This document shows positions 1,706 to 60,500 of a DNA stretch of 64,000 nucleotides, piece by piece. Made by a program: the position numbers and the translations under genes. How positions within the stretch are numbered: the first letter of the stretch is position 1; each line of letters opens with the position of its first letter. Location of the stretch: positions 6,143 to 70,142 of the IMG/VR virus record IMGVR_UViG_3300046010_008569; one strand, 5' to 3'. The notes below the pieces were generated by a model, which saw only the letters and a program-made list of their open reading frames with translations, was not told where the DNA came from and did not search any database. The stretch comes from a virus.

Positions 1706-1714
1706 AAGGTCCTC

Positions 1715-6396: not shown

Positions 6397-6399
6397 CGC

Positions 6400-7005: not shown

Positions 7006-7006
7006 T

Positions 7007-26895: not shown

Positions 26896-27590
26896 CTAGC
26901 CGCCACACCCCTGTGCGGTTAATCGGCCTCTGCCGAACGGCTAGGATAGCGGTCAGTGAGGCTGCAACTAACCTTACGGCTGCTCCATGGAGCGTTGCAG
27001 TGGTCTCACCGAGCGCACTGGAGCGAGGGCTGGGCGGAACTCCAACTGTACCAGCTGTTAATGCAGCCTGGCTTCCCTTACGCCCTAGCTTTGCGTCTCC
27101 GCGCCACCGGGTCCTCGCAAACTTAATCTGCACCCCGGAACCACTAAGCGTTCTCCGGGTCATCACGCTATCACAAGACCCTTCCCATGGGTGATCTTGT
27201 GCATCCCTGTTTTACGGTTGTCTCCCTTCTGGGAGAGCCGCGTGCAGAACTTACAGTGGGCTTGGGTCGAAGCGATGAGTACACCCAATTCAACCCGACC
27301 GAGCGCGCCGGAACCCACATTAAATAAATGACAGCCAACCGCTAGTATCACGGCCCAGTCGCAAGTCTGACCCAGACGCCCATCGGCTTGCGATTCTCCA
27401 GGGCGAAGGTAGGCTGTCATTGTCTCTCGGGGAGCGGCCACGCTCCCCTTCCCCGCCAGGATAAATGGCCTTGCCTTGGCGGGAGTACCTTTGATCGGAG
27501 GCTCAGTGTCGAACTGAGGTGGCGCACACCAAGCACTCGCACGAATGCTCCCGGGAGAGTTCAACTCCCACACGTACCGCTACCCTCCGA
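26896..27590 (-). ncRNA. Putative large structured ncRNA or cluster of small RNAs, including a tRNA-like domain
   Basis: About eight consecutive closed stem domains tile the gap; G-U wobbles fit the minus strand. Confidence 0.6.
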
Positions 27591-28207: not shown

Positions 28208-28467
28208 CCTAGATCATCCTGCTGTGCTTCCGGTCGGTTGACCAGGTCTGGCCACTTGCCATCGTTGTACTCGCTGTACGCTCGTCGCCAGCCCTCGTAG
28301 AACTCCGGGCTGTCGTGCTCCCTGGGGAACCTACCTTCGACAAAGGCATTCCAGCCGGCAGCGAACTCAGTGTCGCCACCCTCATCGGAAAGCTTAAACA
28401 CCGCCACTCGGTCGTTTAGTCTGGCTACGGCATTGGTCATGTTCGCTACGCTCACATACGCAGCCAT
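28204..28467 (-). CDS. Hypothetical protein with Rmf/CrpP-like motif
   Basis: FAAGWNAF..G...EFYEGWRRAY; probable start 28467; the longer track ORF runs into repeat DNA. Confidence 0.45.
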   Translation of the reverse strand: MAAYVSVANMTNAVARLNDRVAVFKLSDEGGDTEFAAGWNAFVEGRFPREHDSPEFYEGWRRAYSEYNDGKWPDLVNRPEAQQDDLG

Positions 28468-28490
28468 GGCTGCTTCTTGCATCAACAGAT

Positions 28491-28608
28491 ATGTGACTTG
28501 GATTTGCATTGCAACTAACGTGATGGAGTTTTGTATAAAATTTTTGTAATGGGTATATGGGACCCAGTGATGTGATTTGGAAAATGTAATTTGGGAAATG
28601 TGATTTGT
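28491..28608. repeat. Direct repeats ATGTRAYTTG(G/T)
   Basis: Copies at 28491, 28570, 28584 and 28598, the last three at 14-bp period. Confidence 0.7.
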
Positions 28609-28765
28609 GTGGAGTTTGGATTGGAAATTTTTCTGGACTTGGGTCTGGATTGTTAATTGAATAGCGGGAGTGGGGCGCGCGTGCATAAGCGGGGGTGCGG
28701 GTGGGTGGGGTTTCGCGCGGAGGATAGCTCGGGCGTACGCGCGTGCTGTTGCCCCGAAGGGGCAA

Positions 28766-28811
28766 CATTACCGATTTGTAACTTGAGTTCCGGTTGGGTT
28801 CATGGGATGAT
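28766..28811 (+). promoter_or_regulatory. Putative promoter with TTAC-N6-GTAA operator
   Basis: CATTACCGATTTGTAACTTGAGTT is nearly identical to 30145-30168; TTGAGT-17-GATGAT. Confidence 0.45.
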
Positions 28812-28867
28812 GTAAGGGTCGAAAGCAGGCCCAGCGATGGGCTGGGTCATTCGATAGGGTCTTTGAC

Positions 28868-29278
28868 ATGACGGATACGAACAAGCCGAAGCTCACGGAA
28901 GCCGAGCGCTTGGCCAAGATGAAGGCAGGCAGAAATGCGGCCGGCGCCAAGGTGCGAGCAGCGCGGAGTGATGTCCTCACTAACACTGATGACTTCATTA
29001 ACTCCGCTGAGTTTCGAGCACGTCACAAGACTAACTCAGTGATTAAACGGGTCTTTGATGACCAGTTTGCACTGCGGGAGAAATACAAGATCAACCCTGA
29101 CGGCTCAGCGATGAGCATTGAGGATGAGATCGCAGCCCGCAATGCGGCAGGTAAGCCGCTCTCTGACCGCCAGCGTAAGCATCTCGGGATGCTCACGAAG
29201 AAGGAAGAGAAAGAGCTTGCCGCCCTCGCTGAGGCAGACGACGACCAGGACGACGACTCGCAAGAGGAAGCGGCCTAG
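28868..29278 (+). CDS. Hypothetical early protein
   Basis: AGGGTCT motif before ATG; acidic tail; followed by a terminator. Confidence 0.7.
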   Translation: MTDTNKPKLTEAERLAKMKAGRNAAGAKVRAARSDVLTNTDDFINSAEFRARHKTNSVIKRVFDDQFALREKYKINPDGSAMSIEDEIAARNAAGKPLSDRQRKHLGMLTKKEEKELAALAEADDDQDDDSQEEAA

Positions 29279-29291
29279 CCTGCAAGGAGAA

Positions 29292-29324
29292 GCCCAGAGC
29301 CGAAAGGTTCTGGGCTTTTTCTTT
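29292..29324 (+). terminator. Intrinsic terminator
   Basis: GCCCAGAGCC-GAAA-GGTTCTGGGC then TTTTTCTTT. Confidence 0.8.
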
Positions 29325-29401
29325 GTCCTGGCGCCAGCGAACACCAAGCCGAAGGCGGGTGTGAGGGGCTGAAAGCCCCGAACCCTTTTACCAAAAGGGT
29401 G

Positions 29402-30049
29402 TTAAAGGCTGTTCTTTCCGCCGCTTAGCTGGCTCACTCGCTCTTTAATCTGCTCCATGACCTCTTCTGAGGTGGCTGCGGCTCGCTCTGCGGCCTTGCC
29501 TTCAGCGACAGCCACGGCCCTATGTTCGCTCAGCGCTTTGAGCGCGGCGATCCTAGCGGCGGCTGAATTGTTGGGGTCGGCGGCTTCTGCTTCTAATCGT
29601 TTAACGATAAAGTTGTCCAGCCGGGAGGCGGTGTGTGACACATCACCCTCCTCCTGATCAAGCCTCGTGATAATGCTGCTACGTACATCTGGCTTCTTCG
29701 CCAGGGCGTTAGCCCTGGAATACATACGCTCATAAGACATCACCTCAACGACCTGTTCCCGGTCATCAATGATCTGGACCGCATAGCAGAGCTCAGGGAA
29801 GCTCTGCTTGTATGCCTCCACTAGGCTGGCCCCTGATGCGACTAGCTCAGCGAAGCTATTCTCCTGTTCTGTCAGCCTATCACTGGCGCCTTCAGCGATG
29901 GCCTCTTTGGCCATTCGCTTGAACATGGCGATCTTATTCTGGTTGGTTGGAGTGGTGGAGCCTTTCTTCTTTCCTCCCTTACCCTGAGACTCAAGCTCTC
30001 TCTTACGAGAGAGCAGGTCTATGATCTTGTCTTTGTCTGGGGTGTCCAT
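29402..30049 (-). CDS. Putative terminase small subunit
   Basis: LTEQENSFAELVASG....EAYK...ANALAKKPDV...I and ARIAALKAL, typical of the TerS HTH and oligomerisation segments. Confidence 0.6.
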   Translation of the reverse strand: MDTPDKDKIIDLLSRKRELESQGKGGKKKGSTTPTNQNKIAMFKRMAKEAIAEGASDRLTEQENSFAELVASGASLVEAYKQSFPELCYAVQIIDDREQVVEVMSYERMYSRANALAKKPDVRSSIITRLDQEEGDVSHTASRLDNFIVKRLEAEAADPNNSAAARIAALKALSEHRAVAVAEGKAAERAAATSEEVMEQIKERVSQLSGGKNSL

Positions 30050-30144
30050 GTGTATTGTCTTTTGTGGCGCCGGGGAGGTCTCCCGGCTTGGGAAGGGTTC
30101 GGGCGGTTAGGTTGATGACATTGCTATTTGTCACTGGAAAACAT

Positions 30145-30191
30145 CATTACGAATTTGTAATTTGACTTTTGCATCATACCCATGCTATAAT
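30145..30191 (+). promoter_or_regulatory. Strong sigma70-type early promoter
   Basis: TTGACT (30162-67), 18-nt spacer, TATAAT (30186-91) with extended TG; TTAC-N6-GTAA just upstream. Confidence 0.75.
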
Positions 30192-30522
30192 GCCTGCATA
30201 GTCTAAATGCGTCTGGACAGCCCGCTCTATTCTGGGCCACCACTAGAGGCATATAGTCTATCTGGGCATGGGGTTAAACCCAGCCCATGGTCAATGAGAA
30301 ACCAGCGCTAGCTGGTGTATCAAAGACCGAAGGTCTTTGACATCGTGATCCCCTAGCTGCCCGGCCTTGACCCCGCGAGTTGACGCGTTGGCTATAGGGC
30401 AGCATTGCTGCGACGGGAGGGAGCTTAGGTCATCAAGCCTAACCCCTCCCGGCGCCTTTCTGTGTGCCATGCTAAGCCCTCGCTGAGGGTTTAGCGGGGC
30501 ATACAGCCCCAAAGGGTCTAAC

Positions 30523-30750
30523 ATGACATACGAATACCCAAAGCCACAACACGTCCGTATGGGTTGCAAGGTTCACTGGAACTACTATCAAACCAGTGAA
30601 GACGCCCAAAAGGCTGCCGAGATGGCAGCTATAGAGGCGGCTGATCTGGAGAAGCAAGGATTCGATTGGGGCTATCAAAGCCCTGGCCATATCCGCCTGC
30701 CGACAGAGCAAGACTTCCACCCAGGCTTTTATGAGGTCTGTATCCCCTAA
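30523..30750 (+). CDS. Early hypothetical protein
   Basis: AAAGGGTCT-aac-ATG. Confidence 0.75.
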   Translation: MTYEYPKPQHVRMGCKVHWNYYQTSEDAQKAAEMAAIEAADLEKQGFDWGYQSPGHIRLPTEQDFHPGFYEVCIP

Positions 30751-30825
30751 GCATTGCCTTGAGGGGCCGGAGCGATCCGGCCCTGATAGCCAGCGCTTAG
30801 AAGCTGGATAAAGAAAGGGTCTAAC

Positions 30826-31212
30826 ATGCAAAACCTTGAACAACTGATTGCAGCCGGCATCACCCTCCCTGTCCGCCTTTCCAAGGCGGAACATGGGCCT
30901 TTGATTAAGAAGGCCTTTGAAGAGGGTAGCCTGATGCGGCAGGTTCAAATGCGAGACAAGCCGAACCAAGTTCACGGTCCTGGATTGTATCGCGGCCCTG
31001 ATGGTCCCTGTGCTATTGGGGCTGTCATTCCTGAGGCTCTCGGCCGATGGATTGATGCAGGGAATGCTGACAGAAACTACTCCGTTGGGAATCTTGAGGG
31101 TGTGATTGATTGCGGTGCAGACCGTGATTGGTTCAACCAAGTTCAGTCAGCCCATGACGGAGGGACTGAAATCTCTATGAGAAGGCTTGAGAATCTTCTC
31201 TCTGAGGTATAA
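30826..31212 (+). CDS. Early hypothetical protein (paralogue of 31323..31727)
   Basis: YRGPDGPCAIG...WF..VQSAHDG. Confidence 0.75.
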   Translation: MQNLEQLIAAGITLPVRLSKAEHGPLIKKAFEEGSLMRQVQMRDKPNQVHGPGLYRGPDGPCAIGAVIPEALGRWIDAGNADRNYSVGNLEGVIDCGADRDWFNQVQSAHDGGTEISMRRLENLLSEV

Positions 31213-31322
31213 GCGATAGTCTCATTTATGGCCTTGGTGCGTAGCGCCAGGGCCATAGGTCGGGCGATTGTGAATGCAATTACTCGCTGCATTTTTCAGA
31301 TGCAGAACTAAAGGGTCTAACT

Positions 31323-31727
31323 ATGATTAAGCATTGGACTAAAGCTGAAGCTCTCCCGATCCTCCAAGAGGCGTTTCGGAACAATTCTTTAGCTGCCCAG
31401 CAAGGGGCTCATACTTGCCAGTACCGAGGCCCCTACGGGCCGTGCATCATCGGTGTCCTGATTGATGACGAAACAGCCGCTAAATGGGACGTTTGGACTG
31501 AGTTTGGTGACAGCTTCTCTATTGCCCCAGTGTTCAACGACAAGAGGCATCACGCCTCCGCTAAGATGATTGAGGAGGTCGAGGCCGCTTTTGGTGGTCC
31601 TGACGCTCAATGGTTTGTGGCGCTACAAGAAGCTCATGACGGCTGGGCTACCAGTAACGAATACCATCGGGAATGGGATGGCGGAACATACCGTCAGACC
31701 ATCACCAAGCTACTAGAACTAAGCTGA
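31323..31727 (+). CDS. Early hypothetical protein
   Basis: YRGPYGPCIIG...WF..LQEAHDG. Confidence 0.75.
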   Translation: MIKHWTKAEALPILQEAFRNNSLAAQQGAHTCQYRGPYGPCIIGVLIDDETAAKWDVWTEFGDSFSIAPVFNDKRHHASAKMIEEVEAAFGGPDAQWFVALQEAHDGWATSNEYHREWDGGTYRQTITKLLELS

Positions 31728-31801
31728 GCTCAGCTAGAGCATCCGGCCTTCGGGTCGGGTGCTTCATGGTGCGCTTAGTACCGATAAGAAAGGGTCTGAC
31801 T

Positions 31802-32014
31802 ATGAAAATATTCCACCACCTACGTTTCGGCTTAAAAGGCTGTCTCGCTAGTGGCGAGGCGTTCACTGTGAAGGCAACTTCGACAACCGGCGAGGTTGTT
31901 GAGGGCGGTCTAGCGACCGTGGACGATTACGGCATCGTGGTAGGCAGTATCGGCCAGCAAGCACAAATGCAATGGCACGATATGATACGGCTCGAAATCG
32001 AAGAGCAATTCTGA
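31802..32014 (+). CDS. Early hypothetical protein
   Basis: Start re-assigned to the ATG after AGGGTCT. Confidence 0.7.
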   Translation: MKIFHHLRFGLKGCLASGEAFTVKATSTTGEVVEGGLATVDDYGIVVGSIGQQAQMQWHDMIRLEIEEQF

Positions 32015-32087
32015 GTCCAGCTAGAGCGTCCAGGCCTGTCCTGGGCGCTTCATGGTGCATTCAGCGCCTGAAAGAGAAGGGTCTACT

Positions 32088-32207
32088 ATGAAAATCAAAA
32101 TCCATAAGGGATGGACTGTCGATCTCGACTACTTGCTGGCAACCAGCGATGGTTGCTATCGATGCTACGACATCGGCCCATTCCAATTCATGTTTGAGGT
32201 TCTGTGA
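32088..32207 (+). CDS. 39-aa early protein
   Basis: AGGGTCT-act-ATG; not in the track. Confidence 0.6.
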   Translation: MKIKIHKGWTVDLDYLLATSDGCYRCYDIGPFQFMFEVL

Positions 32208-32326
32208 TGGAATACTTCACCAACCTCAATGTCACTGACAGGTTCCTGCTTGTCATTGGTGTCTGCTTTCTTGTTCTGGCTGTGTATATGGTCTTGGACT
32301 TGATAGGAGATACACTGAGAGAGTGA
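32207..32326 (+). CDS. 39-aa membrane peptide
   Basis: TGATG coupling; one TM helix. Confidence 0.55.
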   Translation: MEYFTNLNVTDRFLLVIGVCFLVLAVYMVLDLIGDTLRE

Positions 32327-32399
32327 GAGTCTCAGGGTCAGCACATCCGGTGGGTGTGCTGATTCTCGGGCGCTCAGCCCGATTTGGAAAGGGTCTAAA

Positions 32400-32822
32400 A
32401 TGAAACATGACGCAATGGCAGAAGTGCCTCATGCGGTCGTTAACGCTCAGGGTTGGCTCACGTCAATCTTGGAGATGGTCGAGGCGCTGGAACGCTCGGA
32501 AGAGCAGGCAGTGCATGGGCCAGACGAAACGGATGCAGTGCGGTCCAGGATTGAAGAATCAGTCCTGTCTGTGCTTGTCCGCGATGGCTGGCGGCTACCA
32601 GGAGTAATAATCACTCCTGGCGCTGAAGAGTACGAAATCCTCCTGACTACCGGAGGGCCAGCGCTTCGCATCACTGGCAAGCTCAACGAGCACAACGAGC
32701 CCGATGACTTCCCGCGGCTTGAGTATCAGGACTGGTACCAACCATGGACTGAGTACACTGACGCGAGAGAGCATCGGGAGGCTTTGCAGCGCTTTGCTTC
32801 CTGCTTCTACTATGGAGATTGA
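32400..32822 (+). CDS. Early hypothetical protein
   Basis: ILLTTGGPALRITG...LEYQDW..PW, a motif recurrent in phage early genes. Confidence 0.75.
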   Translation: MKHDAMAEVPHAVVNAQGWLTSILEMVEALERSEEQAVHGPDETDAVRSRIEESVLSVLVRDGWRLPGVIITPGAEEYEILLTTGGPALRITGKLNEHNEPDDFPRLEYQDWYQPWTEYTDAREHREALQRFASCFYYGD

Positions 32823-32823
32823 T

Positions 32824-32913
32824 ATGATAAAAAAACCAACGCTTCTGGAGATAAGCTTACTTGCAGCAACGATCATAGTGTTTCTTATCACTGTGGTTGC
32901 TCTGTTTGGTTGA
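32824..32913 (+). CDS. 29-aa membrane peptide
   Basis: GGAG RBS; TM helix. Confidence 0.5.
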   Translation: MIKKPTLLEISLLAATIIVFLITVVALFG

Positions 32914-33015
32914 TAGTCTCAGTGAGGCGCCATCCAGGTTGTCGCTGCGCTCCATGCGCTGCGCTTCTCGGGTGGCGCTGATCTCGGGCGATCATGCTCG
33001 GCAAAGGGTCTAACA

Positions 33016-33195
33016 ATGAAACGGTACTTGTTATTCACCTACCAGATTTATTACCCGTCAGGTGGGTGGAACGATTTCAAAGGCAGCTTCGATGATATCG
33101 AAGAAGCTAGAGGAGTCTGGACTAACGATCCATACAGAGATGATCGCTGTCAAGTGATTGACCGCGATACTGGACAGATAGTCTGGAAGGACTGA
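33016..33195 (+). CDS. 59-aa early protein
   Basis: MKRYLLF...YYPSGGWNDF; AGGGTCT start; not in the track. Confidence 0.7.
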   Translation: MKRYLLFTYQIYYPSGGWNDFKGSFDDIEEARGVWTNDPYRDDRCQVIDRDTGQIVWKD

Positions 33196-33269
33196 GCGTC
33201 TCAGTTGCTAGCGTCCGGTCTGGCGCTAGCTTCTCGGGCGATCACCGCTCGATTACGAAGGGTCTGACT

Positions 33270-33500
33270 ATGAGCATGAACGAAAAGAGAGCCATGTGGG
33301 CTCATGACGCCGTGGAGCGCTTCCGTGAAGTGTGCCCTGGTAGCAAGAACAAAGATGGCTCAATCGAAATGAGCGAGGCCATCGGAGACTTGCTGGTTAA
33401 TCTATTTCACCTCTGCGATCTAGAGGATATTGACGCAGCCGGAGCCGCTAAGCGCGCGCTTGCAATGTATCGAGATGAGGTGGAAAACCCCGACTTCTGA
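33270..33500 (+). CDS. Early hypothetical protein
   Basis: IGDLLVNLFHLCD; AGGGTCT start. Confidence 0.75.
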   Translation: MSMNEKRAMWAHDAVERFREVCPGSKNKDGSIEMSEAIGDLLVNLFHLCDLEDIDAAGAAKRALAMYRDEVENPDF

Positions 33501-33581
33501 GAACTGCCCTGAGAGCCCGGCCTAACAGCCGGGCTTGATGGCCAGCGCTTAGCTGGATGATATTAAAGAAAGGGTCTAAGA

Positions 33582-33779
33582 ATGAAAACCAAGTATCTTG
33601 CGGAGCGAAAGCTCGCAATAGCGGAAGATGCGTTGTTCCAATTACTCCTAGCATACGCAAAGGGTGAGCGGAATGGCGGCTCAATTGATTGGGAAGATGT
33701 GGATATCGCGTTTGAAACCGCGAAAGAAGCCATGCCCGATGCATACGCTGACATCGTAAAAGAACTGGAGACAGAATGA
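33582..33779 (+). CDS. Early hypothetical protein (paralogue of the 34322 N-terminus)
   Basis: QLLLAYAK...DWEDVDIA. Confidence 0.75.
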   Translation: MKTKYLAERKLAIAEDALFQLLLAYAKGERNGGSIDWEDVDIAFETAKEAMPDAYADIVKELETE

Positions 33780-34030
33780 GTAGTTTTTCACCGCATATCT
33801 GGGACCACTGCCTGGCGCAAATGCCGGCCACGTTCCGCGCTCGGGAGCTTCTACAGAGCTACCGTGATCTTGAAGATTTGTACTGGCATCGCGCTGGCGC
33901 TTGGGTGGCTTCGCTCTTCTCAAAGAAGGCTAAGCTACACTGGCGCCAGACATGCTTGCGGATCATCGAGAAACGAACCGAGATTCGTCAACTGGGAGGC
34001 ATCGTGCCTCCGTTTTGGAGTATCGCATAA
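33776..34030 (+). CDS. Early hypothetical protein
   Basis: ATGA coupling. Confidence 0.55.
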   Translation: MSSFSPHIWDHCLAQMPATFRARELLQSYRDLEDLYWHRAGAWVASLFSKKAKLHWRQTCLRIIEKRTEIRQLGGIVPPFWSIA

Positions 34031-34242
34031 TGGCAACATTTCAAGATCGATTTCACAAGATCATCAAACAAGCTAAGCGAGAAGCGGAGCGTGACGGCTC
34101 CGCTGTGGCGATCCTAAACCTCAACCAGATCGGATCGCCAATGCTCGTCATTCGTCCGCGCGAATGGAGTGACAGTCATGATTGTGTGGCGCAAGTCCAT
34201 GCTGACGGGACAGTCACCGAAACAGGAAGGATGAGAAACTAA
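34030..34242 (+). CDS. Early hypothetical protein
   Basis: TAATG coupling, MATFQDRF. Confidence 0.6.
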   Translation: MATFQDRFHKIIKQAKREAERDGSAVAILNLNQIGSPMLVIRPREWSDSHDCVAQVHADGTVTETGRMRN

Positions 34243-34321
34243 CATAGCATTGCACTGAGAGCATCGGCCTATGGCCGGTGCTCGATGTCCAGCGCTATGC
34301 TGGGAACTGAAAGGGTCTACC

Positions 34322-34672
34322 GTGAATACAGAACTTGCAAAACAAGCGCTCATTCAACTCTTACTGACTTATGCCAAGGCAGAAGAGACGCGAGACGTTG
34401 AATGGTCTGACGTGGACTTGGCGGTCGAATACGCCAAGGAAGCGTTGCCGGGTGAATACGAGCGCATCCTGGATGAACTCCAGTTTGACGACACTCAGGA
34501 ACGTATCCGCGCGCAATTCAAGACAGATATCGAGCCGCTGGTTATTGAGCAGTACGGGGCTGACGACGAAGTCGCCCTGAACGAAGAGTTCAACAACTGG
34601 ACAGACTCGCTCTGCAAAGACGGCATAATCTCCGATTATGTCTACAACAACATCACTCGAACTGACGACTGA
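34322..34672 (+). CDS. Early hypothetical protein, apparent two-domain fusion
   Basis: GTG start after AGGGTCT; C-terminal D..AL.E.FNNWTDSLCKDG.IS motif. Confidence 0.7.
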   Translation: MNTELAKQALIQLLLTYAKAEETRDVEWSDVDLAVEYAKEALPGEYERILDELQFDDTQERIRAQFKTDIEPLVIEQYGADDEVALNEEFNNWTDSLCKDGIISDYVYNNITRTDD

Positions 34673-34748
34673 GAACTGCCATGAGAGCCCAGGCGCAAGC
34701 TTGGGCTCGATTGCCAGTGCTTAGCGCTGGAATACGAAAGGGTCTACT

Positions 34749-35360
34749 ATGCATGAAGTTTACAAAGTCGAGTACCGCGGATGCGTGATCAAAGCTTACT
34801 ATGATCAAGACGCATCACACACTAACCCAATCGATAAGATGAAGTACGACGACACCTTCATCTGGGCCGTGTGGGAACGTAACTCGATCTTCAGCGACCG
34901 GGATTATCGACCGGTTGATGATCCGTCAGAGATGCCGGACTGGGCAGAAGAGAACGGGTACGAGTTATTCCCGCTCTTCAAGTACGAGCACAGTGGCGTT
35001 GCTTACAGCATCGCCCCTTTCTCGTGCCGATGGGACTCAGGTCAAGTCGGTTATCTGGCCATCAAAAAATCGGCATTCACTTCACCAGAGGCGAAGCCAT
35101 TGCAAGAATATGCCGAACAGTTCGTTAAGACTGCCGGTGCTTGGTGTAATGGTGAAGTCTACGGATACACTGCATACACCGAAGACGGAGAAGATATCGA
35201 CTCTTGCTGGGGCTTCATCGGAGACGATGGCTACTCATGGCGCAATGAAGACTGCTACATGATCCAGCAAGCCAAGGAGAATATCGACTACTACCTGAAA
35301 GAACAGGCAGAGATTCCGTACAAGTACCAAGAAGACGCTGACGCGGCCATGAACGGCTAG
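34749..35360 (+). CDS. Early protein, possibly antirestriction-associated
   Basis: YEHSG...WDSGQVG...W.NGEVYGY...DSCWGF motif; function tentative. Confidence 0.65.
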   Translation: MHEVYKVEYRGCVIKAYYDQDASHTNPIDKMKYDDTFIWAVWERNSIFSDRDYRPVDDPSEMPDWAEENGYELFPLFKYEHSGVAYSIAPFSCRWDSGQVGYLAIKKSAFTSPEAKPLQEYAEQFVKTAGAWCNGEVYGYTAYTEDGEDIDSCWGFIGDDGYSWRNEDCYMIQQAKENIDYYLKEQAEIPYKYQEDADAAMNG

Positions 35361-35437
35361 AATGCAACTAGAGCCCATCGGCACAAGCCGGTGGGCTTCA
35401 TGATGCAGTCAAAGCATCACACTGAAAGGGTCTAACT

Positions 35438-35599
35438 ATGAAAGCCTTCAAAACAAAACACTTCGCTGCTTCATGGCAGCGCGGTGTTCTTTTGTTTGCG
35501 CTTGGCCAGCTGTCTCCGGATGATCTACCCGCTGAAAAGCGGGAGCTTATCCGAGGAATAGCTAACTGGGCGTTAAGTCATGGAAGGAATATCAAATGA
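35438..35599 (+). CDS. 53-aa early protein
   Basis: AGGGTCT start; not in the track. Confidence 0.6.
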   Translation: MKAFKTKHFAASWQRGVLLFALGQLSPDDLPAEKRELIRGIANWALSHGRNIK

Positions 35600-35757
35600 A
35601 AGAATACGTCATCACGCTTCGGCGTGACCGGGGCGGTAAGATCAGCGTCCTGACAACAGCATCTTCTTTGGCGCAAGCCATTAAGCAGGTGTGCGATTTC
35701 GAGTTTGCACCTGAGAGTGCAGTTATTGAAACCAAGTTGATCAGGGAGCTTTTCTAA
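35596..35757 (+). CDS. 53-aa early protein
   Basis: ATGA and TAATG coupling on both sides. Confidence 0.6.
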   Translation: MKEYVITLRRDRGGKISVLTTASSLAQAIKQVCDFEFAPESAVIETKLIRELF

Positions 35758-36317
35758 TGGCTAAGCTAAACATTTGGGAAACGCCAGATTCTTACGCTGG
35801 CTTCAACCCTGTCGGACACATCCTAGTTGCGGCTAAACACCGTGACTCGGATTGTTTGACACGCTCCAACTGGATCATTTCCTGCCAGCGAATCGCTAAA
35901 GTTGCTGGCGTCGAGGCGCTTCCAGACCTGGCCGACCTCTATGAAGGCGGCTGGCCATCAGGGAGGCGTCTTAATCCGGAGGAAATGCCGGCCGCATACA
36001 CGTTCTCAGCATCACACTGCTTAGTGGGCTGGGTAGAATACATGCTTGTTCGCAATGACGCTCCAGAGGTTGTTATCGCTGAAGCGCAAGCTATTGCGGA
36101 TGAAATTAGCAACTACCCGGCCCTCAACGAGGACCACTGGAGCGAAATGGAGTGGGAAGAGGCCCAAGAATACTGGGCCGGAATGTCTCTCCGAGATAGA
36201 CTCGATATCATTACTGATAGTCGTGGTGAGCGCGCTTGCTCAATCTTCGCTATCAGGCGGGATTACATTCCGCAAGATGATAACGGCTTCATCTTTGAAA
36301 GACTGACACGACCATAA
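35757..36317 (+). CDS. Early hypothetical protein
   Basis: RDSDCL.RSNW...H..VGWVE...YP.L.E. Confidence 0.75.
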   Translation: MAKLNIWETPDSYAGFNPVGHILVAAKHRDSDCLTRSNWIISCQRIAKVAGVEALPDLADLYEGGWPSGRRLNPEEMPAAYTFSASHCLVGWVEYMLVRNDAPEVVIAEAQAIADEISNYPALNEDHWSEMEWEEAQEYWAGMSLRDRLDIITDSRGERACSIFAIRRDYIPQDDNGFIFERLTRP

Positions 36318-36395
36318 TGAGTGTTGCCTTGATAGGGCGGGAGAAATCCCGCCCTTGATAGCCAGCAATCAAGCTGGATCACTAGGGTCTAAACT

Positions 36396-36806
36396 ATGAA
36401 ATACATTGCAATCTATCTGGACTGCTGCTTGTCCAGCTATTTCCAAGGTTTTAATGGGCCGGTACTTAATGTGCCGGTTGATAGTGAAACCACCTACGGC
36501 GAGCTTTGCGGCGCGCTGACGGCGGAATTGCAAGTCTACGACAGCACTTACTACGAAGCGACGCTGAACATCGACACGTTCGACTGGGAGGAGGCTGAGA
36601 AGGCTATCATCCAGTTGTTCTCCGGCGTTGGTGTTGACGAGAAGGTTGCTGAAGCTCGCTACGCAGAACGGTATCGGCCGGTTGAGGACTGGATTCAGGC
36701 TGTTGCCTCCAGAATGACAACCATGAGCTACGACGATTGGAAGGAAGCCTGCGCGGAAGATGCAGAGTCCTGCTACTTCTACATCGGCTTCCGTAAAGCT
36801 GAGTGA
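36396..36806 (+). CDS. Early acidic hypothetical protein
   Basis: AGGGTCT start. Confidence 0.7.
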   Translation: MKYIAIYLDCCLSSYFQGFNGPVLNVPVDSETTYGELCGALTAELQVYDSTYYEATLNIDTFDWEEAEKAIIQLFSGVGVDEKVAEARYAERYRPVEDWIQAVASRMTTMSYDDWKEACAEDAESCYFYIGFRKAE

Positions 36807-36921
36807 CAATTGCGGTGAGAGCTAGGGCTTCGGCCCTAGCTTGATCCCCAGCGGTCACGCTGGAATAGAAGCCGCGAGAGCGGCGTATGTGAGCCGAAAG
36901 GCGAGCATGAAAGGGTCTACT

Positions 36922-37269
36922 ATGCACGAGAGTTTAGAAGAGGCGTCTAAAGCTGCCGCTGTATGTGAGGATATAGATGACGCCCTGCGCATCATCTATG
37001 ATTACACAGGCATCGATGATGGCGCCTTTGGCTATGACTTTGTTGAGGGTCTTCGCGTTAGCGGTGATACGACATGGTCCGAGCTATCGCAAACAGAGCG
37101 CGATTTTGAAATCAACCATGCTGCTGCAATCGAAGTGGAAGCTATGGTAGCGTACAAGTTTCCTGTTATCGGTGACTTGAATGCTATTCGCATAGCTGCT
37201 CGCTCCGGCTACCAAGTTCCTGTTGCGTACCGATTAGCGACAGAGATGCAGCAAAGAATGGGAAAATGA
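36922..37269 (+). CDS. Early hypothetical protein
   Basis: Start re-assigned after AGGGTCT. Confidence 0.7.
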   Translation: MHESLEEASKAAAVCEDIDDALRIIYDYTGIDDGAFGYDFVEGLRVSGDTTWSELSQTERDFEINHAAAIEVEAMVAYKFPVIGDLNAIRIAARSGYQVPVAYRLATEMQQRMGK

Positions 37270-37346
37270 GTGTTGCCCTGAGAGCCCGGTGAAAGCCGGG
37301 CTTGATGGCCAGCAATCAAACGCTGGAAATAGAGAAAGGGTCTATT

Positions 37347-37571
37347 ATGGACAATCACACAATTATTGGTGAGCAGACCGACATTCAAGAAGCGGTCGAT
37401 CTCATCGCCGCACTGCACAAGCTTGTCGAGGTTGCAAAAGAGGCTACAGGTGAGGACTTTCCGGTACTCTACGTCGAAACGGAAGAAGGCATCGTCACGG
37501 GTGCGAAGCTTATCAAAAAAGAGCTTAGCGACGGCTCGTTCAGCTACGATATCGAACTCACCTACGACTAG
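37347..37571 (+). CDS. Early hypothetical protein (paralogue of 38358..38582)
   Basis: FPVLYVE...AKLIKKELSDGS..YDI. Confidence 0.75.
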   Translation: MDNHTIIGEQTDIQEAVDLIAALHKLVEVAKEATGEDFPVLYVETEEGIVTGAKLIKKELSDGSFSYDIELTYD

Positions 37572-37774
37572 TAGTCATCCGCTTTGCCGTATATGCGGCT
37601 TTGCAAAAGGCGGCATCGGTTCGTGGAATGGGCAGCAATGCAAGTGCGGCCACTATGAGCCGCCAATCCAAATGATTGACTGAATTTCCACTGCCTTTGA
37701 GCGTTGCGGTGAGAGCTAGGCTTCGGCCTAGCTCAATCCCCAGCGGTCACGCTGGGCTATGAAAGGGTCTCTAA

Positions 37775-38029
37775 ATGATTAAACGACCAAGAATGTATGA
37801 GGGTTTGCCTATCGACGCGAGAGCGTCGATTGACGCGGCCTTTGAAGACCTTACCAAAGGTTTGCGAGGAATGAATTACGGCACAGACAACTGCGACCAC
37901 GCTGAACACCTGATCGACGCTATGACGGAGTATTTCCTGTATTCCAACCCGGCGTTTCGATCTGTAGTCTACGCAGCCGCTTGCCACTACGAGGCAACCG
38001 GCGAATACGCGGAGGGCTGCGGAGGATGA
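37775..38029 (+). CDS. Early hypothetical protein
   Basis: AGGGTCT start. Confidence 0.7.
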   Translation: MIKRPRMYEGLPIDARASIDAAFEDLTKGLRGMNYGTDNCDHAEHLIDAMTEYFLYSNPAFRSVVYAAACHYEATGEYAEGCGG

Positions 38030-38361
38030 GGATCGGCGTTGACACTGTACGCATCAAAGCGGTGCTGGCTCCGGAGGGGCCAGCGTCGCTATCCATAGGC
38101 CGCGGTCGCGTGGCAGAGCGAGGCCCTCAAGGCCTCACCCTCAAGCTGCATGACAAGCCGATCTTCAGGTACGATGGTAAAAGCATCGTGCTCGATCTGT
38201 GCGGCATGTGGACCCCCTCGACCACCAAAGCTATGCGCGAGTATGGTGATGCTGTCGGGGTGGCGATCAAACCATCGCTGGCCAAGGGGCGGTTTACCGC
38301 AAGCTACCGCGGCACTGTCCACGAGGCTAACTTCAACAACACAATAAGGATTGAAATATGA
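38026..38361 (+). CDS. Early hypothetical protein
   Basis: ATGA coupling. Confidence 0.6.
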   Translation: MRIGVDTVRIKAVLAPEGPASLSIGRGRVAERGPQGLTLKLHDKPIFRYDGKSIVLDLCGMWTPSTTKAMREYGDAVGVAIKPSLAKGRFTASYRGTVHEANFNNTIRIEI

Positions 38362-38582
38362 CTCAAGTCATAGAAGAAATCGGAGACAATCACGAAGCCA
38401 CTGACCTCTCCGCCACGCTGCTTAAGTTGATTGAAACAGCGAAGGCGGCGAGCGAGGACGATCCATTCCCGGTCATTTACGTCGAGGATAGAGATGGAAC
38501 GCGCTTCACAACGGCTAAACTCGTGAAGCGAGAACTTTCAGACGGCTCTCACGTATTCGATATCATACTGAGCGACGAATAG
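38358..38582 (+). CDS. Early hypothetical protein
   Basis: FPVIYVE...AKLVKRELSDGS..FDI. Confidence 0.7.
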   Translation: MTQVIEEIGDNHEATDLSATLLKLIETAKAASEDDPFPVIYVEDRDGTRFTTAKLVKRELSDGSHVFDIILSDE

Positions 38583-38604
38583 GGGATCACGCCACGCTAA
38601 GATT

Positions 38605-38643
38605 AAGGGCGGTCAGGAGAAATCCTGCCGCCCTTTTTCTTTG
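38605..38643 (+). terminator. Terminator ending the early operon (between convergent units)
   Basis: AAGGGCGG-CAGGA/TCCTG-CCGCCCTT followed by a T tract. Confidence 0.8.
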
Positions 38644-38644
38644 C

Positions 38645-38842
38645 CTATTCTTTTTGTTGCCTGTTGTCGAAATAACCGAAACCCCAGGGTGGAAGAGGTT
38701 CTTCCTTCAGGAACTCTTCTTCATAGACCTCGATGGGGATCAATTCAAACTCAGGGGGATCGCCACGAAGCCTTGCGGCTTTCTCTTCCTCCAGGCGCTT
38801 AAGGCCGGCGTTGATGGCTTCTGCGTCGTCTGCTAGTTTCAT
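38645..38842 (-). CDS. Hypothetical protein
   Basis: Last of the coupled minus-strand ORFs. Confidence 0.55.
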   Translation of the reverse strand: MKLADDAEAINAGLKRLEEEKAARLRGDPPEFELIPIEVYEEEFLKEEPLPPWGFGYFDNRQQKE

Positions 38843-52871: not shown

Positions 52872-53284
52872 CAAAGCCTTTCCATTTTGAAGCCAAGGTC
52901 GAGTCCGTATCCAAGAACAGCAAGGGCATCTTCTTGCGCTTGCTGATCTCGGAGGCTCCGCCTGAGCTCATGACTATGGCGGTCAGCCAGAGGCTGATGG
53001 TGGCTGCTTCGCCGCTGGGTGACTTCGATGAAGATGTTGGCGAGGGCGACCGGGCAGTGCAGCTGGCCGGCATCCTTTGCCGGTCCAAAGACTTCTGGAG
53101 GTTCATTGAAACAAGATCGCGCACTGAGATTTCTATCTCTTCAGAGGATGAAGCCGCGGATTGGCTCCGCGGCAAGTTGGGAATTGACTCCCGGGCTGAC
53201 CTCCGCCAGGATGCCGCTGCCCGAGAGCAGCTGAGGTTATACAATGAGCGCTTCCAAGAATGGTCAGACAAAGCATCTCTATGA
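52868..53284 (+). CDS. Hypothetical protein
   Basis: AG.LC....FW...AA.WLR..LGI.SRA.L motif. Confidence 0.65.
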   Translation: MTKPFHFEAKVESVSKNSKGIFLRLLISEAPPELMTMAVSQRLMVAASPLGDFDEDVGEGDRAVQLAGILCRSKDFWRFIETRSRTEISISSEDEAADWLRGKLGIDSRADLRQDAAAREQLRLYNERFQEWSDKASL

Positions 53285-54068
53285 TGCTTGGCTAGCCTTC
53301 CAAGAACAGCGGTTGCCATACCTTGCGCCAAAGACGCAAGCCAATTACACCCAGGCCGCCCGCCTAATACCCCAGAGCCGCAAGGCGATGCGGGATTACC
53401 AACCAGCTGACATCACCAAGCTCATCAAGCATCTCAAGCCAGGCGCCTACATGGTAGCCAGAGGCTTCTTCTCCAGCCTGTTTGCCTTCGGCATCAAGCA
53501 GGGCTGGGCGAGCGCCAACCCTATCCAGGGTGTCGAGACGAGGAAGTTGGGAAAGATCGTCCGGTGGCCTCGTGAGCGCGTTTATGAAGACATATCGAAA
53601 ATCGATAACCCTGAAGCTCGTCTCGTTCTCGAGACGATGTATGCTTCTGGCCAACGTATCTCCGATGTCATTAGGGCTAGGCCTAAGGACCTTCGCGATG
53701 GAACGCTCAGGCTCTTCCAGAAGAAGACAGGTAACTATGTTGCCGCGGCGCTGGGGCCGGAGATTACGGATCGTTTAGTTGCCCTGGAACAGAATCCTGA
53801 TAAACCCTTTTTTAAGATCAAAGCAAGCACGGTCTGGAGGCTCGTCAGGCAGATGAGAGGCGACACTAAATACAGCCCACATTCGCTTAGGAAGGCAGCC
53901 TCTTGCGAGGCTGCTGAGGGCGGCGCCAGTGAGGCCGAGCTTCAGGCCTTGCTTGGACACCGGACGCCGCGAGCGGCATCCATCTATAGGCTGGAAGCAA
54001 ACGCCGGCATCCTAGCGGCCTCTGCTTCTGCGAAGCGAGCCATGTCAGTCCAAGGAGGCGTTGAATGA
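53244..54068 (+). CDS. Tyrosine recombinase/integrase
   Basis: SGQRISD (R), QKKT (K), HSLR, LLGH, C-terminal Y; core-binding domain ending ANPI. Confidence 0.85.
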   Translation: MSASKNGQTKHLYDAWLAFQEQRLPYLAPKTQANYTQAARLIPQSRKAMRDYQPADITKLIKHLKPGAYMVARGFFSSLFAFGIKQGWASANPIQGVETRKLGKIVRWPRERVYEDISKIDNPEARLVLETMYASGQRISDVIRARPKDLRDGTLRLFQKKTGNYVAAALGPEITDRLVALEQNPDKPFFKIKASTVWRLVRQMRGDTKYSPHSLRKAASCEAAEGGASEAELQALLGHRTPRAASIYRLEANAGILAASASAKRAMSVQGGVE

Positions 54069-56276: not shown

Positions 56277-57528
56277 CTGGCTTAACGGAGTGACGGGCGA
56301 TCTCGCCGTGGGTGCGGTCCATGATGATGCACTTCATGTCTCGGCTCGAGCGATAGCCCTTCTGATCTGAGTACGCATCCGGCGATGCCAGGATGCGGAA
56401 GCTTTCGACTTCAGCCCCAGGGAAGTCCTTCAGCTTGTTCGTGTGGTGAACGTGTCCCATCCAGATATAGCGGTGCTTGGTGTTGCCCCACATCTCAGGA
56501 ACATCCGTAGCCACGATCAGCGGTAGCTGCTCGGGCTTGGCGCCGTGACCATGGTGCGTCGAGATCAGCACATTGCCGAACTGGTAGTAGTGGTAGTGCC
56601 GCGGCGAGTTATCGATTGTGATTCTCGGTTCGTTTTCGTAGACGTTCTTCAGGCATTCCATGAGGAAGATCGAGGACGACAGGTCGTGGTTGCCGATCTC
56701 CACGATGACGTGGACCTTGCCATGCCGGCGCAGCGCTTGCTCGATCATGTAGCGCATACACCGGATCGCAGTTCTGACCATCTTCGGGAAACGGCTGTCG
56801 GCATCCAGGTGGTGGCCCGATGTCGGCGTCACCGCCACGAACGAGTCGTAGTGCATGAAGTCACCGAGGAAGACCAGCAGGGCCTGTTCGCAACGGACGG
56901 TCGAACTGAAGAGGTAATCCGAGGCCTTCTTCAGAAGGCTCTCTCCGATCTCCAGGTCGTAGCTGGAGCCGGTCTCGTCCTTCCAGGCCAGCATCCCGAG
57001 GTGGTGGTCTCCAACCGGGTAGCACGCAAGCAGGTCCTCCATCGCCCTGGAAGGCGCTGGAGAGGGCTTTGCTCTCGGCAGGTCCTTGGACAGTTCGTCC
57101 GCTAAAGCTCTCCAGGCCTCTTCCCTGGCGATCTGCGCAGGCTTTTCAGCAACCCATTGCTGGGTGACCCTGCCCTCCTGGTCATAGAGGGTAGAAACCT
57201 TGGTGATTGTCTTGGGATCGGGCAGGTAGACCCGCTCATCCGGGTCCATGCTAGGCATGGCCAGCTTATCCCACCGGCCGCGCTCTTGACCATCCTGGTC
57301 ATACAGGATGGATTGCTTGCGGACCTCAAGCACCGGTGTCGCTAGGAGACCTAGCTTTCGAGCCTTCTTGAGACGATCCTTAATGCATGAGGCACTAAGG
57401 CCAGTCTTCTCAGCAACGCGCTGAGCGTTGCTTCCTGACGCTAGGTAAAGCTCTACTGTATTCTTTAGCTCTTCTTCAGGGGTTTCCGGGATACGACCAT
57501 TCGCTTCGCGCTTTGCCAGTGCTGGCAT
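56257..57528 (-). CDS. HTH plus calcineurin-like metallophosphoesterase
   Basis: GDHH, GDFMH, GNHD, HHGH, GHVHH; N-terminal HTH. Confidence 0.85.
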   Translation of the reverse strand: MPALAKREANGRIPETPEEELKNTVELYLASGSNAQRVAEKTGLSASCIKDRLKKARKLGLLATPVLEVRKQSILYDQDGQERGRWDKLAMPSMDPDERVYLPDPKTITKVSTLYDQEGRVTQQWVAEKPAQIAREEAWRALADELSKDLPRAKPSPAPSRAMEDLLACYPVGDHHLGMLAWKDETGSSYDLEIGESLLKKASDYLFSSTVRCEQALLVFLGDFMHYDSFVAVTPTSGHHLDADSRFPKMVRTAIRCMRYMIEQALRRHGKVHVIVEIGNHDLSSSIFLMECLKNVYENEPRITIDNSPRHYHYYQFGNVLISTHHGHGAKPEQLPLIVATDVPEMWGNTKHRYIWMGHVHHTNKLKDFPGAEVESFRILASPDAYSDQKGYRSSRDMKCIIMDRTHGEIARHSVKPAMLAEE

Positions 57529-60500
57529 TAGTCCCGCTCACGTTGACGCCGAGATTCGGCTTCCACAGCTTCTGCCGTTCGATTAACGTACTCGTTGTAA
57601 TCTGTCATCACCCTATCCATCCGGCCGGTCAAATATTCTATGCGACGGTCGCGGGCTGCATCGGTGAGGCTATTATCGGCATAGGTCCGGCGCAGGTCCT
57701 GCTCCAGCTGGCGATAGGACCACATATACTGGCGGATACGATTCAGCTGACCATAAGGCACATCGTTCGGATAGACGTTAACGCCCAGCGCCCGAGCGAT
57801 GAGTTGACCTCTCGTCTGCGTCGGTTCGCCATAGCGATCCTCGCCAGTTCCCACGAGAGCCTCGTAGCCGGGGCCACCTTTGTCCTCGCCAGGAAGCGCC
57901 GGCAAATAGTAGTTATAGAAGCTCGGCATGAAGGAGCGGAGTGTGAACCAGGTTGTCTTCCAGCCTTGCGTCTGGGGATCGTCGGTCTCCTCATAGATCG
58001 GCGTGCCGCGGAACGGATCGACACCAGTGCTGACACCGGCATAGATCGTGCCAAGAGGACCGCCATTCAGGCCAAAGGCCTTCAGGGCGTCAACGGGGTT
58101 TCCCTTCGACGCTGACAAGAAGAGACCCCAGAGAGCACCCTCAGGGAGGGTGTAGCCAAGGTCAATCCACTGGATGCGACCATGCTCGTCCCGCCAAGGG
58201 ACGGGCATCAGCATCGGACGGTCTGCGAGAAACTCGCTTAGCGTCTCCTTCGCGTCCTCAGGAGCGAAGCCCCACATCAGCGAAGCGAGCGCCATGAGAC
58301 CGAGGTACTGACCATAGCCTGTATACATCAGGCGCCAGGGCGAGGTGGCGACTTGCTCCAGGAAGTTCGGTACAGCGAAGTACGTGTAGCGAATGAACGG
58401 AGCCAACGCCGTATTGGATAGCCAACGAACAACCGGCGTGACGGCAGAGTAGTCGAAGAAATACTTGCGGGCTTCCATGGCAGCAAGCGCCTCTGGCGTG
58501 CCGCGCTCGAGTTCGTCAGCGATCTTCGCCACCTTGAAGATCACGTCCTCCATCTGGTAGAGGAACGACATATTGTCAGCGTAGGCGTTCTTCATTGCGT
58601 CAAACACCGCGGTTGCGGTGTCCATCGCATTGAGGCCGGCATCAATCGCGCTGTTCGGGCCACCAGTCAGATTAGAAATCTTGGAGCGGAAGTTGGCCTT
58701 ATCGATTTCCTTCTTCAGGTTTCGAGCGAACTGATCCATCACACGAAGCTCTGCTTCGGTGAAGGTCTGCTTCATCGCACCGAACTTGATCGCGGCCTCG
58801 ATGGCAGGAGAGTTCTTCTTCTTGGTGTGATAGTCAGCGACTTGCTGAACCGCCTCGATGACACGTAGCGGGTTCGTACCGGAGCGAGCCAGCATCAGGA
58901 TGTTGGAGTAGATGTTCCGCAAGTGAGTCGGCGGGTTGGCGACTGTCAGCAGGAACTTGATGTTGCGGTTGAATGCACCGTACATCTCTTGCGCAGCGCC
59001 AGCGACAGACTCAGGGTCTGCGCTTGCGAACTGACCGCCAGTGATGTCGTTGTAAAGCTGGGTGATGACGACCGCTCCAGCGGCGTCGCCATACTTGCTG
59101 GTGTCCATCGGAAGCTGACGATAGCCATCCGGAAGATCGCCCTTGCTGAGCGCTGTTGCGTACTGCGGGTTCGTGGACAGGACAAGCTTCATATCCTGAA
59201 TCACGCGCTCGAGGATGCGGATTTCGGAACGAAGCTCTGAGGCATACGAGCCAGTGGCTGATGCCCCGCCGAGACCCTGGAGTTCAGCGCGCTTGTTTTC
59301 AAGCGAAGTCTGGCTGAGCTTCAGCTGATTCGAGATGTAGAATAACGAACGCCACTTGCCACCGAACATCACAAGGCTGTCCGGCAAGAACCAGCGAGGG
59401 TTGCTCGGTGAGGTTTGATTGTGGTGGATCAGCGAGTTCAGGTATGTGTAAGCTGCGATGTCTCGCAGCGGACGCTCGATACTCATGTAGAGCAAGAACG
59501 GAAGGTCCTCGATTTCACCCTTGGTGAGACGCTTGTCCTGAGGGATGCCTTCGCGCCAGGCTCTGTACGGCGCTCCAGAAGCGCGCGTACCCATGGTTGG
59601 CTTGTAGCTCTCGAAATGCTCCATGTACGCACGAAGCAGGTAGTGGCCACTCCACTTATCGCGCTGACGAGCGCTGATGATACGATGCTCCACGAGAGCA
59701 TCGCCCACTTCCTTGATCGCCTGCATGGCCTTCTTGCCGGCCGCTTGCAGTTCAGGCGGGAGCGTCGCGAGGTCGGCTGCCTGTTTCACAGGATCAGCCT
59801 CAGTCATCACTTTCTTCAGGCGCCAAATTTGATCTTGAGCTTTAGCGCGCTCAGCTTGGGTGAGCTTAGCGAGTCCGCTCATGTCGCCCTTCAGGACCTT
59901 GAAGGCGTCCTGCATGTTGATACGCAGGCCCGCGGAAACATCGCGGGCCATCTCGACGGCAATTTCTTCGGCCTTACCGACGCGACCCTGGAAGAGCGAG
60001 CGATAGATGCCGAGCGCTGCTTCGTCGGGAACGCCACCGAATTGGAAATAGCGAGAGGCAGTGCCAGCGATCTGCTGAAGGATTGGGTGACTATTGAAGA
60101 CACCTCTCCACATTGCCTTGAGGCTACCCTCGACAAGCTTATCCACGTCATCGAGCTTACCGAAGGCCACGTTCCATGGCTTAAGACCGGCTATGCGCTT
60201 GTCTTGGATGGTTGCGCCGCCAAGACCTTTACGGGTTTTAACCGACGCAATCTGAGCCGCCACGTAGGCGGCGTCGTCCAGGAAGCCTGGCTGCTCACCA
60301 ATGATGCTGCCGGCTGGAGGAGTGTTCGTGGCGCCGAAGCGGCCACCAGGAGGATTGTAGCGACGGGACTCCATGCGGCCCGCTGGTGTCGGTCTATCCG
60401 TCCCCACAAAGCCGCCTTCAAAGATGCCGTTCTCGAGGAAGGCCAGGAAGGCCTTCTCGTCTTTGAAGAACTGTTGCACTTGCTTACGCGCAATGATGCG

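Follow-up and report, generated by a model that had tools for sequence, protein, structure and literature searches.

Fifteen RNA elements punctuate the early operon in a 64,000-nt stretch of phage DNA (the window, bases 6143-70142 of the 70,142-bp IMG/VR record IMGVR_UViG_3300046010_008569, whose completeness is estimated at 85%), and in each of them a single 3' arm can pair either with a 5' arm, forming a long imperfect hairpin, or with a downstream segment, forming a small hairpin. The family offers, with unusual clarity, a natural example of two RNA folds that exclude each other and are both supported by covariation. We describe its structure and both alternative pairings, its strand specificity, its operon context, and its conservation in relatives. 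As to function, we tentatively read the elements, by analogy and with a probability of about 0.4, as intercistronic processing and stability signals of the T7 RNase III type, with a built-in refolding step that would provide the downstream message with a 5' hairpin.

All fifteen elements proposed in a first-pass annotation of the sequence were found at the coordinates given there, all on the plus strand and all between plus-strand genes, and each is followed on its 3' side by AGGGTCT, the start-associated sequence, and then by a start codon. The array sits in a plus-strand block of about 25 small early genes without recognisable families. Eight elements belong to family A and were scored with the covariance model R2 (described below): 30748-30807 (65.7 bits; small hairpin at 30790-30807), 33498-33556 (70.0 bits), 34244-34304 (64.2 bits), 34670-34730 (67.7 bits; the 3' arm CCAGU gives a U-G pair in the small hairpin), 36318-36380 (72.8 bits), 36804-36863 (72.4 bits; two extra hairpins before the start-associated sequence), 37267-37330 (70.5 bits), and 37698-37756 (65.2 bits), where AAU replaces GAU as had been pointed out. 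Four belong to family C: 31213-31286 (20.3 bits, expectation value E = 0.0017; a long upper stem and an extra hairpin before the start-associated sequence), 32324-32382 (35.9 bits; a tandem G-U instead of the internal loop), 32911-33001 (41.9 bits; an enlarged upper domain), and 33193-33252 (25.1 bits). The remaining three, of family B, lie at 31725-31782 and 32012-32070 (both from alignment A6) and at 35358-35419 (from the alignment of family B copies and folds), the last with a small hairpin GAUGC/GCAUC that is compensated relative to GGUGC/GCACC.

The long hairpin has about 25 stacked positions. From the base upward, it comprises 9-10 lower positions, a C-C mismatch, 2 bp, a 3x3 internal loop composed of U-U, G-A and A-G, and an upper stem of 8-11 bp; the lower stem contains the upstream stop codon. 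In the eight family A copies, aligned with MAFFT (alignment A1), 92.7% of the cells were paired and 11 of the 19 pairs had changed on both sides. On none of five measures did any of 500 shuffles match the observed value, and slid controls were 26-47% paired. The two inner pairs described in the first-pass annotation as covarying perfectly (15-49 and 16-48) were indeed unpaired in no copy, so that this covariation is exact.

A larger alignment (A5) was made from 40 R2 hits in the window and its relatives, representing 38 distinct copies; contig L255 was excluded as largely a duplicate of L247. Here, 92.8% of the long-hairpin cells were paired, 18 of 19 pairs showed changes on both sides, and slid controls reached 29-44%. 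The covariation score was 0.774 against 0.214 in shuffles (0/500), and the measure counting further pair types was not significant (107/500 shuffles). Model-fitted alignments such as this one are biased toward structure; family A aligned with MAFFT led to the same outcome. Among the 719 cells of the 38 distinct copies there were 79 G-U and 16 A-C combinations, and this excess identifies the folded strand as plus-strand RNA. The earlier argument for plus-strand RNA is supported by this count; the UUCG and GNRA-type loops to which it also appealed occur in only some copies.

The imperfections of the long hairpin are conserved as imperfections and are not repaired. The C-C mismatch, as had been noticed, is kept, in 37 of the 38 distinct copies. 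The tandem G-A arrangement noticed with it is less uniform: the 5' side of the loop reads UGA in 27 of 38 copies and the 3' side GAU in 25 of 38, and the variants found elsewhere (UGU/CAU, UGC/AAU and GG/UU) are likewise non-Watson-Crick or wobble. Such a pattern could mark a protein-binding site, at which a host factor or one of the phage's early or middle proteins would read the U-U/G-A loop and the C-C mismatch and would shut off, activate or protect all early cistrons jointly. The conserved non-Watson-Crick features beside flanking pairs that are free to vary, the restriction of the elements to one temporal gene class, and the roughly 25 early proteins without a recognisable family all agree with this explanation, which we nevertheless judge unlikely. 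The loop varies between copies, also in family B (UA/CAU), which is hard to square with one specific reader; a Pfam search of 95 phage proteins found no recognisable RNA-binding domain or RNase; and the covarying small hairpin would be left unexplained.

This small hairpin, of 5-7 bp, is present in all 15 window copies with folding energies of -6.7 to -14.5 kcal/mol, and the 3' arm of the long hairpin supplies its 5' half. In folds without additional flanking pairs, it begins 3-5 nt past the upper stem; its z-score against shuffles was weaker than -2 in three of the 15 copies. On A5, the small helix is 96.7% paired. Column 88 of this alignment pairs with column 11 as G-C in 27 copies and U-G in nine, and with column 104 as C-G in 27, G-C in eight and U-A in one; column 89 pairs with column 10 as U-A in 28 copies and C-G in nine, and with column 103 as A-U in 28, G-U in five and G-C in four. 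Two positions of the 3' arm therefore covary with both of their alternative partners. The independent covariation events are few, namely the arm sets UUGC/CCAG/CUGG, GUCUC/CGGGC/CCCG and CAGC/GGUGC/GCGCC, a CUAG variant, and GAUGC/GCAUC at 35358. The competition between two pairings of the 3' arm, which the first-pass annotation had put forward, is thus confirmed in that both are kept by compensatory change.

The two states are also close in energy. The 3' arm always pairs worse with the 5' arm, where wobbles and C-C or G-G oppositions occur, than with the downstream segment, and constrained folds placed the free-energy difference between the long and the small state between -2.1 and +4.9 kcal/mol in all 15 copies. 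It is a possibility, if a doubtful one, that every junction is a true bistable switch, in which the 3' arm is shared between the long hairpin with the stop codon and the small hairpin heading the leader, the near-equal energies would be tuned by the conserved wobbles and the C-C mismatch, and the passage of the terminating ribosome or a cut would flip the junction and thereby decide the stability, processing or initiation of the next message. If this were true, the array would couple genes through translation or processing by means of a repeated module, in a form not described before.

A more specific version, which needs no cleavage, makes the terminating ribosome the trigger: it would melt the 5' arm and let the small hairpin form by the next ribosome-binding site, so that the state of the junction would report upstream translation and set downstream initiation or stability. 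The near-equal energies and the covariation of both pairings speak for it, as does the small hairpin, which in 12 of 15 copies ends 3-8 nt before AGGGTCT. In 11 of 15 copies the element opens with the first base of the stop codon (10 had been counted before), and in three more the stop codon lies at most 4 nt away. This position does not discriminate, since in the T7 gaps considered below the stop codon falls in the lower stem at one junction and just before it at the other. When the first 16 nt were blocked, the predicted accessibility of the ribosome-binding site and start codon rose in six copies, fell in eight and stayed the same in one, with no consistent direction. Moreover, an element in the operon leader (below) has two states without a stop codon at its base. 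The ribosome-termination trigger suggested earlier is weakened by the last two results, keeps the stop-codon position in its favour, and is in our estimate rather unlikely.

For the family searches, we used two covariance models. Searched unfiltered against the entire window, both strands included, R1, the model of family A, gave 67-77 bits for the eight family A copies and weak scores for the four of family C, with nothing convincing outside the operon. R2 was built from 37 hits of the family A type in the window and relatives. It found all four family C copies (20-42 bits, E <= 0.0017), and A and C are accordingly one family. At E <= 0.0017, R2 gave 12 window hits, all on the plus strand and confined to the operon (30746-37757); the next hit in the 64 kb had E = 0.1, and the remainder of the 70-kb record gave no hits.

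The three window copies of family B were undetected by R2. They follow the plan of A and C, with two fixed mismatches in the lower stem, UA/CAU as the loop, and G-U as the first pair of the upper stem. Across three window and five relative copies, pairing in family B reached 94.9%, and double changes were seen in 6 of 17 pairs. One copy in the relative L236 (L236:11299-11361) combines family B arms with the UGU/CAU loop of an A-type subfamily. From the original division into families A, B and C, the separateness of B from the R2 model remains and that of A from C does not.

The whole window had no match to Rfam 15 at the gathering score. At E <= 5, the region 28500-38800 gave nine weak chance hits, with no ribozyme and none covering the full element, and a description of the motif was not found in open-access papers and bioRxiv. 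A new class of self-cleaving ribozyme, an idea raised in the first-pass annotation, would agree with the many copies in a phage, the conserved unpaired purines and the lack of an Rfam match. The element is, against this, an unbranched rod; its apical loops vary, it offers neither a junction nor a candidate pseudoknot, and it has only about eight conserved unpaired bases, which differ between subfamilies. No known ribozyme model matched at E <= 5. Self-cleavage is therefore extremely improbable.

The transcription signals place the elements within one predicted transcript, because a single strong promoter and a single terminator flank the array. The promoter, of the sigma-70 type, lies at 30162-30191 on the plus strand (TTGACT, 18 nt, TATAAT, with TG before the -10, an extended -10; 11 of 12 positions). 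Seven promoter-like sites were found in 28400-38800 (shuffle mean 7.3); only the site at 30162-30191 exceeded 9 of 12 positions, and none of the seven lies inside an element. An intrinsic terminator ends the operon at approximately 38605-38640 on the plus strand, with a G+C-rich stem followed by a U run (-32.9 kcal/mol, z = -5.1). From these predictions we infer that host RNA polymerase transcribes the early block as a single RNA of about 8.4 kb. A search for a phage RNA polymerase with PF00940 gave no match, and its control was without a match as well.

Within such a transcript, the elements might be passive structured spacers, which would block 3' exonucleases, hinder Rho loading in untranslated gaps, and insulate the cistrons. 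Repetitive extragenic stabilisers of this passive-hairpin kind are known, the upper stems are stable and G+C-rich, and the elements have no U tract and hence are not terminators. A passive role is distinctly improbable all the same: the conserved mismatches, the fixed internal loop and the covarying alternative hairpin would all be superfluous, and the lower stem is held weak, not strong.

The start of the operon shows the small hairpin in another setting. The first cistron (30523) is preceded by a small hairpin and then AGGGTCT, and the same holds at 28868 for a separate monocistronic early gene with a terminator of its own. A small hairpin with AGGGTCT thus stands before each of the two early genes at the head of a primary transcript, and the small-hairpin form is their first-on-transcript leader. 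The hairpin at 28868 is compensated in the relative L236 (CCCAGC/GCUGGG against CCCUGC/GCAGGG). In the operon leader, before its first AGGGTCT, an element at 30455-30512 on the plus strand can also form a long hairpin or a small hairpin (GGGGC/GCCCC); the fold of 30440-30527 had z = -5.0. It has a fourth arm type, an unrelated sequence and no stop codon at its base, was undetected by R2, and is a structural analogue. Its architecture is kept with a different sequence in L236 (L236:10360-10430).

Because both folds are kept by evolution, the hairpins probably mark points at which the transcript is cut into stable single-gene messages. In the processing mechanism that we propose, the long hairpin would fold first, with the conserved wobbles and mismatches holding it weak enough for a later exchange. 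A double-strand-specific endonuclease, most likely host RNase III, would then cut the imperfect helix, with the cut probably falling close to the internal loop on the 3' side, as it does in T7. The stable upper hairpin would stay at the 3' end of the upstream message, and the freed 3' arm would pair with the downstream segment as the small 5-7 bp hairpin while the downstream message is released. This message would then carry a 5' hairpin before its ribosome-binding sequence, as the phage's own monocistronic early gene has in its leader. The cleavage, the enzyme, the position of the cut and the stabilising effect are in this sense predictions. The host enzyme is favoured because the Pfam search found no RNase domain and a phage RNase III was not found in the record.

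The model for this proposal is the early region of T7, and the likeness to T7 early-gene hairpins drawn in the first-pass annotation is supported by the layout of the T7 gaps, which we folded. In both phages, paralogous imperfect two-tier hairpins separate the genes of a polycistronic early mRNA, which the host polymerase makes in T7 and is predicted to make here. The T7 gaps, which according to Dunn and Studier in 1983 reportedly contain the RNase III sites R0.3, R0.5, R1, R1.1 and R1.3, showed the plan of the element described here when folded: some 8 bp of lower stem, then an internal loop, then 9-13 bp of upper stem. The element also has the form of such signals, hairpins of roughly two helical turns with mismatches or an internal loop close to the target site. 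The T7 stop codon lies inside the lower stem at 0.4/0.5, whereas at 0.7/1 it precedes this stem by a few bases. In both systems the ribosome-binding site of the next gene comes soon after, and one copy stands in the leader; in T7, the first RNase III site presumably sits in the untranslated leader. The relation is one of analogy only, since an unfiltered R2 run on T7 400-8200 gave 0 hits at E <= 1. The density is threefold here (15 in 7 kb against 5 in 7 kb), the internal loop is a symmetric 3x3 G-A loop accompanied by a fixed C-C mismatch whereas that of T7 is asymmetric, and the covarying competing small hairpin has no counterpart in the T7 sites folded. According to a published review, five of these signals process the T7 early precursor of about 7000 nt, and loops or mismatches confine RNase III to one strand, single-strand cleavage leaving stabilising 3' hairpins (PMC3867540).

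Several observations count against the processing mechanism. Near-equal energies are unneeded by a simple cleavage site and look more like those of a true switch; our confidence stays at about 0.4 in part because they suit such a switch equally well. The strict conservation of the U-U/G-A loop and of the C-C mismatch would be compatible as well with recognition by a sequence-specific protein. No competing downstream hairpin is seen at the T7 sites that we folded, and the two-state part therefore lacks precedent in the model system. Finally, the early proteins are without known families, and a phage-encoded nuclease is possible among them. If the processing mechanism is right, the T7 strategy of cutting the early message arose independently in unrelated lake phages, in a denser form and with a refolding step added. 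The module is compact (about 60 nt plus the ribosome-binding sequence) and would be a candidate insulator or processing part for synthetic operons.

Two further systems resemble parts of the array. Processing-triggered refolding occurs in the hok mRNA of plasmid R1, a single toxin mRNA that is trimmed at its 3' end. The likeness lies in a metastable long-range pairing that gives way to a local hairpin when its partner is removed, with the fate of the message altered; the trigger proposed here differs in being an internal cut and would act at 15 junctions. The nearest published look-alike by layout is the start-associated sequence (SAS) of Cluster K mycobacteriophages with its extended form (ESAS), likewise a start-associated motif with upstream inverted repeats. 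The SAS is a short conserved sequence of unknown function that stands 3-8 bp before the start codon in a subset of genes, and about half of the copies are preceded by imperfect 17-bp inverted repeats with a variable spacer of 4-13 bp; its authors saw little support for an mRNA hairpin, departures from the repeat being uncompensated (PMC3203893). The present elements differ in that 18 of 19 pairs are compensated, the spacer is a full upper hairpin, and there is no sequence relation.

The AGGGTCT motif has 28 matches in the window against 6.3 expected, a number reached by 0 of 100 shuffles. Eighteen copies are on the plus strand and span 28856-37770; 17 of them stand 4-7 nt 5' of a start codon, and the copy at 37046 is intragenic. 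The motif mostly occurs within AAAGGGTCTAAC, accompanies the elements in all relatives, and is rare at late genes, which show AAGGGT-like sequences without TCT.

The elements were also found in 10 further viral or metagenome contigs. In total, there are 48 distinct copies, comprising 38 of the A/C type, eight of family B and two further family C copies. A loose pattern scan of viral contigs resulted in single chance matches in at least 118 contigs and in no relative. A tighter, specific pattern gave 21 loci, of which only L228 was real, and led to one viral contig, G001, with three copies. A stricter one gave 38 metagenome loci and one more viral contig; R1 was strong on 10 of these 39 and weak on one. 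The candidate L261, with 23.3 bits by R1, was treated as a chance match and dropped. No element was detected by R2 in 23 loci with distant terminase relatives or relatives of a 203-aa protein (up to 10 kb on each side). The 37 pattern-matching loci in species-representative genomes gave 0 hits with R2, all of their pattern matches being due to chance.

Gene order around similar elements varies between the relatives. Among 13 pairs of similar elements across contigs, both flanks were common in four, only the upstream flank in one, only the downstream flank in none, and neither flank in eight, a set too sparse to tie the elements to one neighbouring gene or the other. The elements coincide with the mosaic boundaries of early gene cassettes between related phages. 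A comparison of four sequencing runs showed no variants in the elements and one joint. A run that may come from the source sample contains a minor contig of 411 nt, at depth 6 against 93, in which 308 other letters take the place of 31783-32010 (228 nt), the gene between two family B elements. This contig hints at cassette exchange and is equally explicable by a related phage with family B elements that match at 85% or more.

These data bear on a DNA-level explanation, in which the elements would be attC-like sites of single-strand recombination or PeSL-like cassettes that move early genes, and the RNA fold would be incidental. The differing gene order, with eight of 13 element pairs sharing neither flank, the three paralogous gene pairs in the array, the minor contig and a tyrosine recombinase encoded in the record are all in its favour. 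Yet recombination between any repeats would yield all the mosaic signs seen, including the shuffling, by a homologous route. The G-T count of 79 against 16 A-C places the fold on the coding strand, no element has a promoter, and the covarying small hairpin would have no role. We regard the DNA-level explanation as very unlikely.

The attC comparison is otherwise close: integron arrays, too, consist of small genes whose function is unknown, with an imperfect hairpin after each that has conserved arms, fixed imperfections and a variable centre, and their gene content is mosaic between relatives. attC sites fold on the bottom strand and carry the core boxes RYYYAAC ... GTTRRRY. The fold here is on the opposite strand, and inspection of the conserved arms (YTGC.../...CCAGY, GTCTC/CGGGC and CAGC/GGTGC) showed no GTTRRRY/RYYYAAC boxes. 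There is also no integron integrase. The tyrosine recombinase (274 aa; 53244-54068, plus strand) matches Pfam Phage_integrase at 51 bits and falls below every NCBIfam Xer or integron cut-off, with 19.5 bits on TIGR02249, the integron-integrase model, against a cut-off of 265. It lies 15.5 kb from the array in this record and 19.6 kb from it in G001. The attC reading thus fails on strand, boxes and integrase. The PeSLs of T4-type phages, according to Arbiol et al. in 2010, reportedly consist of an early promoter plus a stem-loop, and are likewise repeated intergenic modules flanking small early genes in a plastic region. The elements here have no promoter-like site, and the PeSL analogy made in the first-pass annotation was rejected on that account.

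The recombinase gene is located in the replication/recombination module, and a homologue stands at the end of G001. The three paralogous pairs among the 25 early proteins are 30826-31212/31323-31727, 33582-33779/34322-34672 and 37347-37571/38358-38582 (identity 29-54%, E from 1e-9 to 6e-18), and their similarity is consistent with duplication within the array.

The phage is a tailed phage by gene content (terminase, capsid, primase-helicase, ERF and exonucleases), and its nearest cultured phages have just 40-45% terminase identity. Ten sequencing runs carry it, all of them DNA and from lake-water metagenomes. A blastn search of the early region against 50,697 phage records gave no relevant match.

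A block of about 24 bp with the core GATTTGTAAYTTGA occurs at 28766-28789 and at 30145-30168, overlapping the -35 region of both rightward early promoters, and is also present 5' of the homologous gene in L236; it is probably an operator common to both promoters. The 126-nt gap before the last element (37572-37697) holds a possible small Cys-rich open reading frame (ORF) that ends at 37683 and lacks the start-associated motif. Between leftward genes, 26896-27590 is an intergenic stretch of about 700 nt with no convincing ORF and no Rfam match. On the minus strand, 57528-63584 encodes a 2018-aa protein with PHROG matches to virion-structural, ATPase/kinase-like and minor-head proteins, and from these matches it looks like a polyvalent virion protein.

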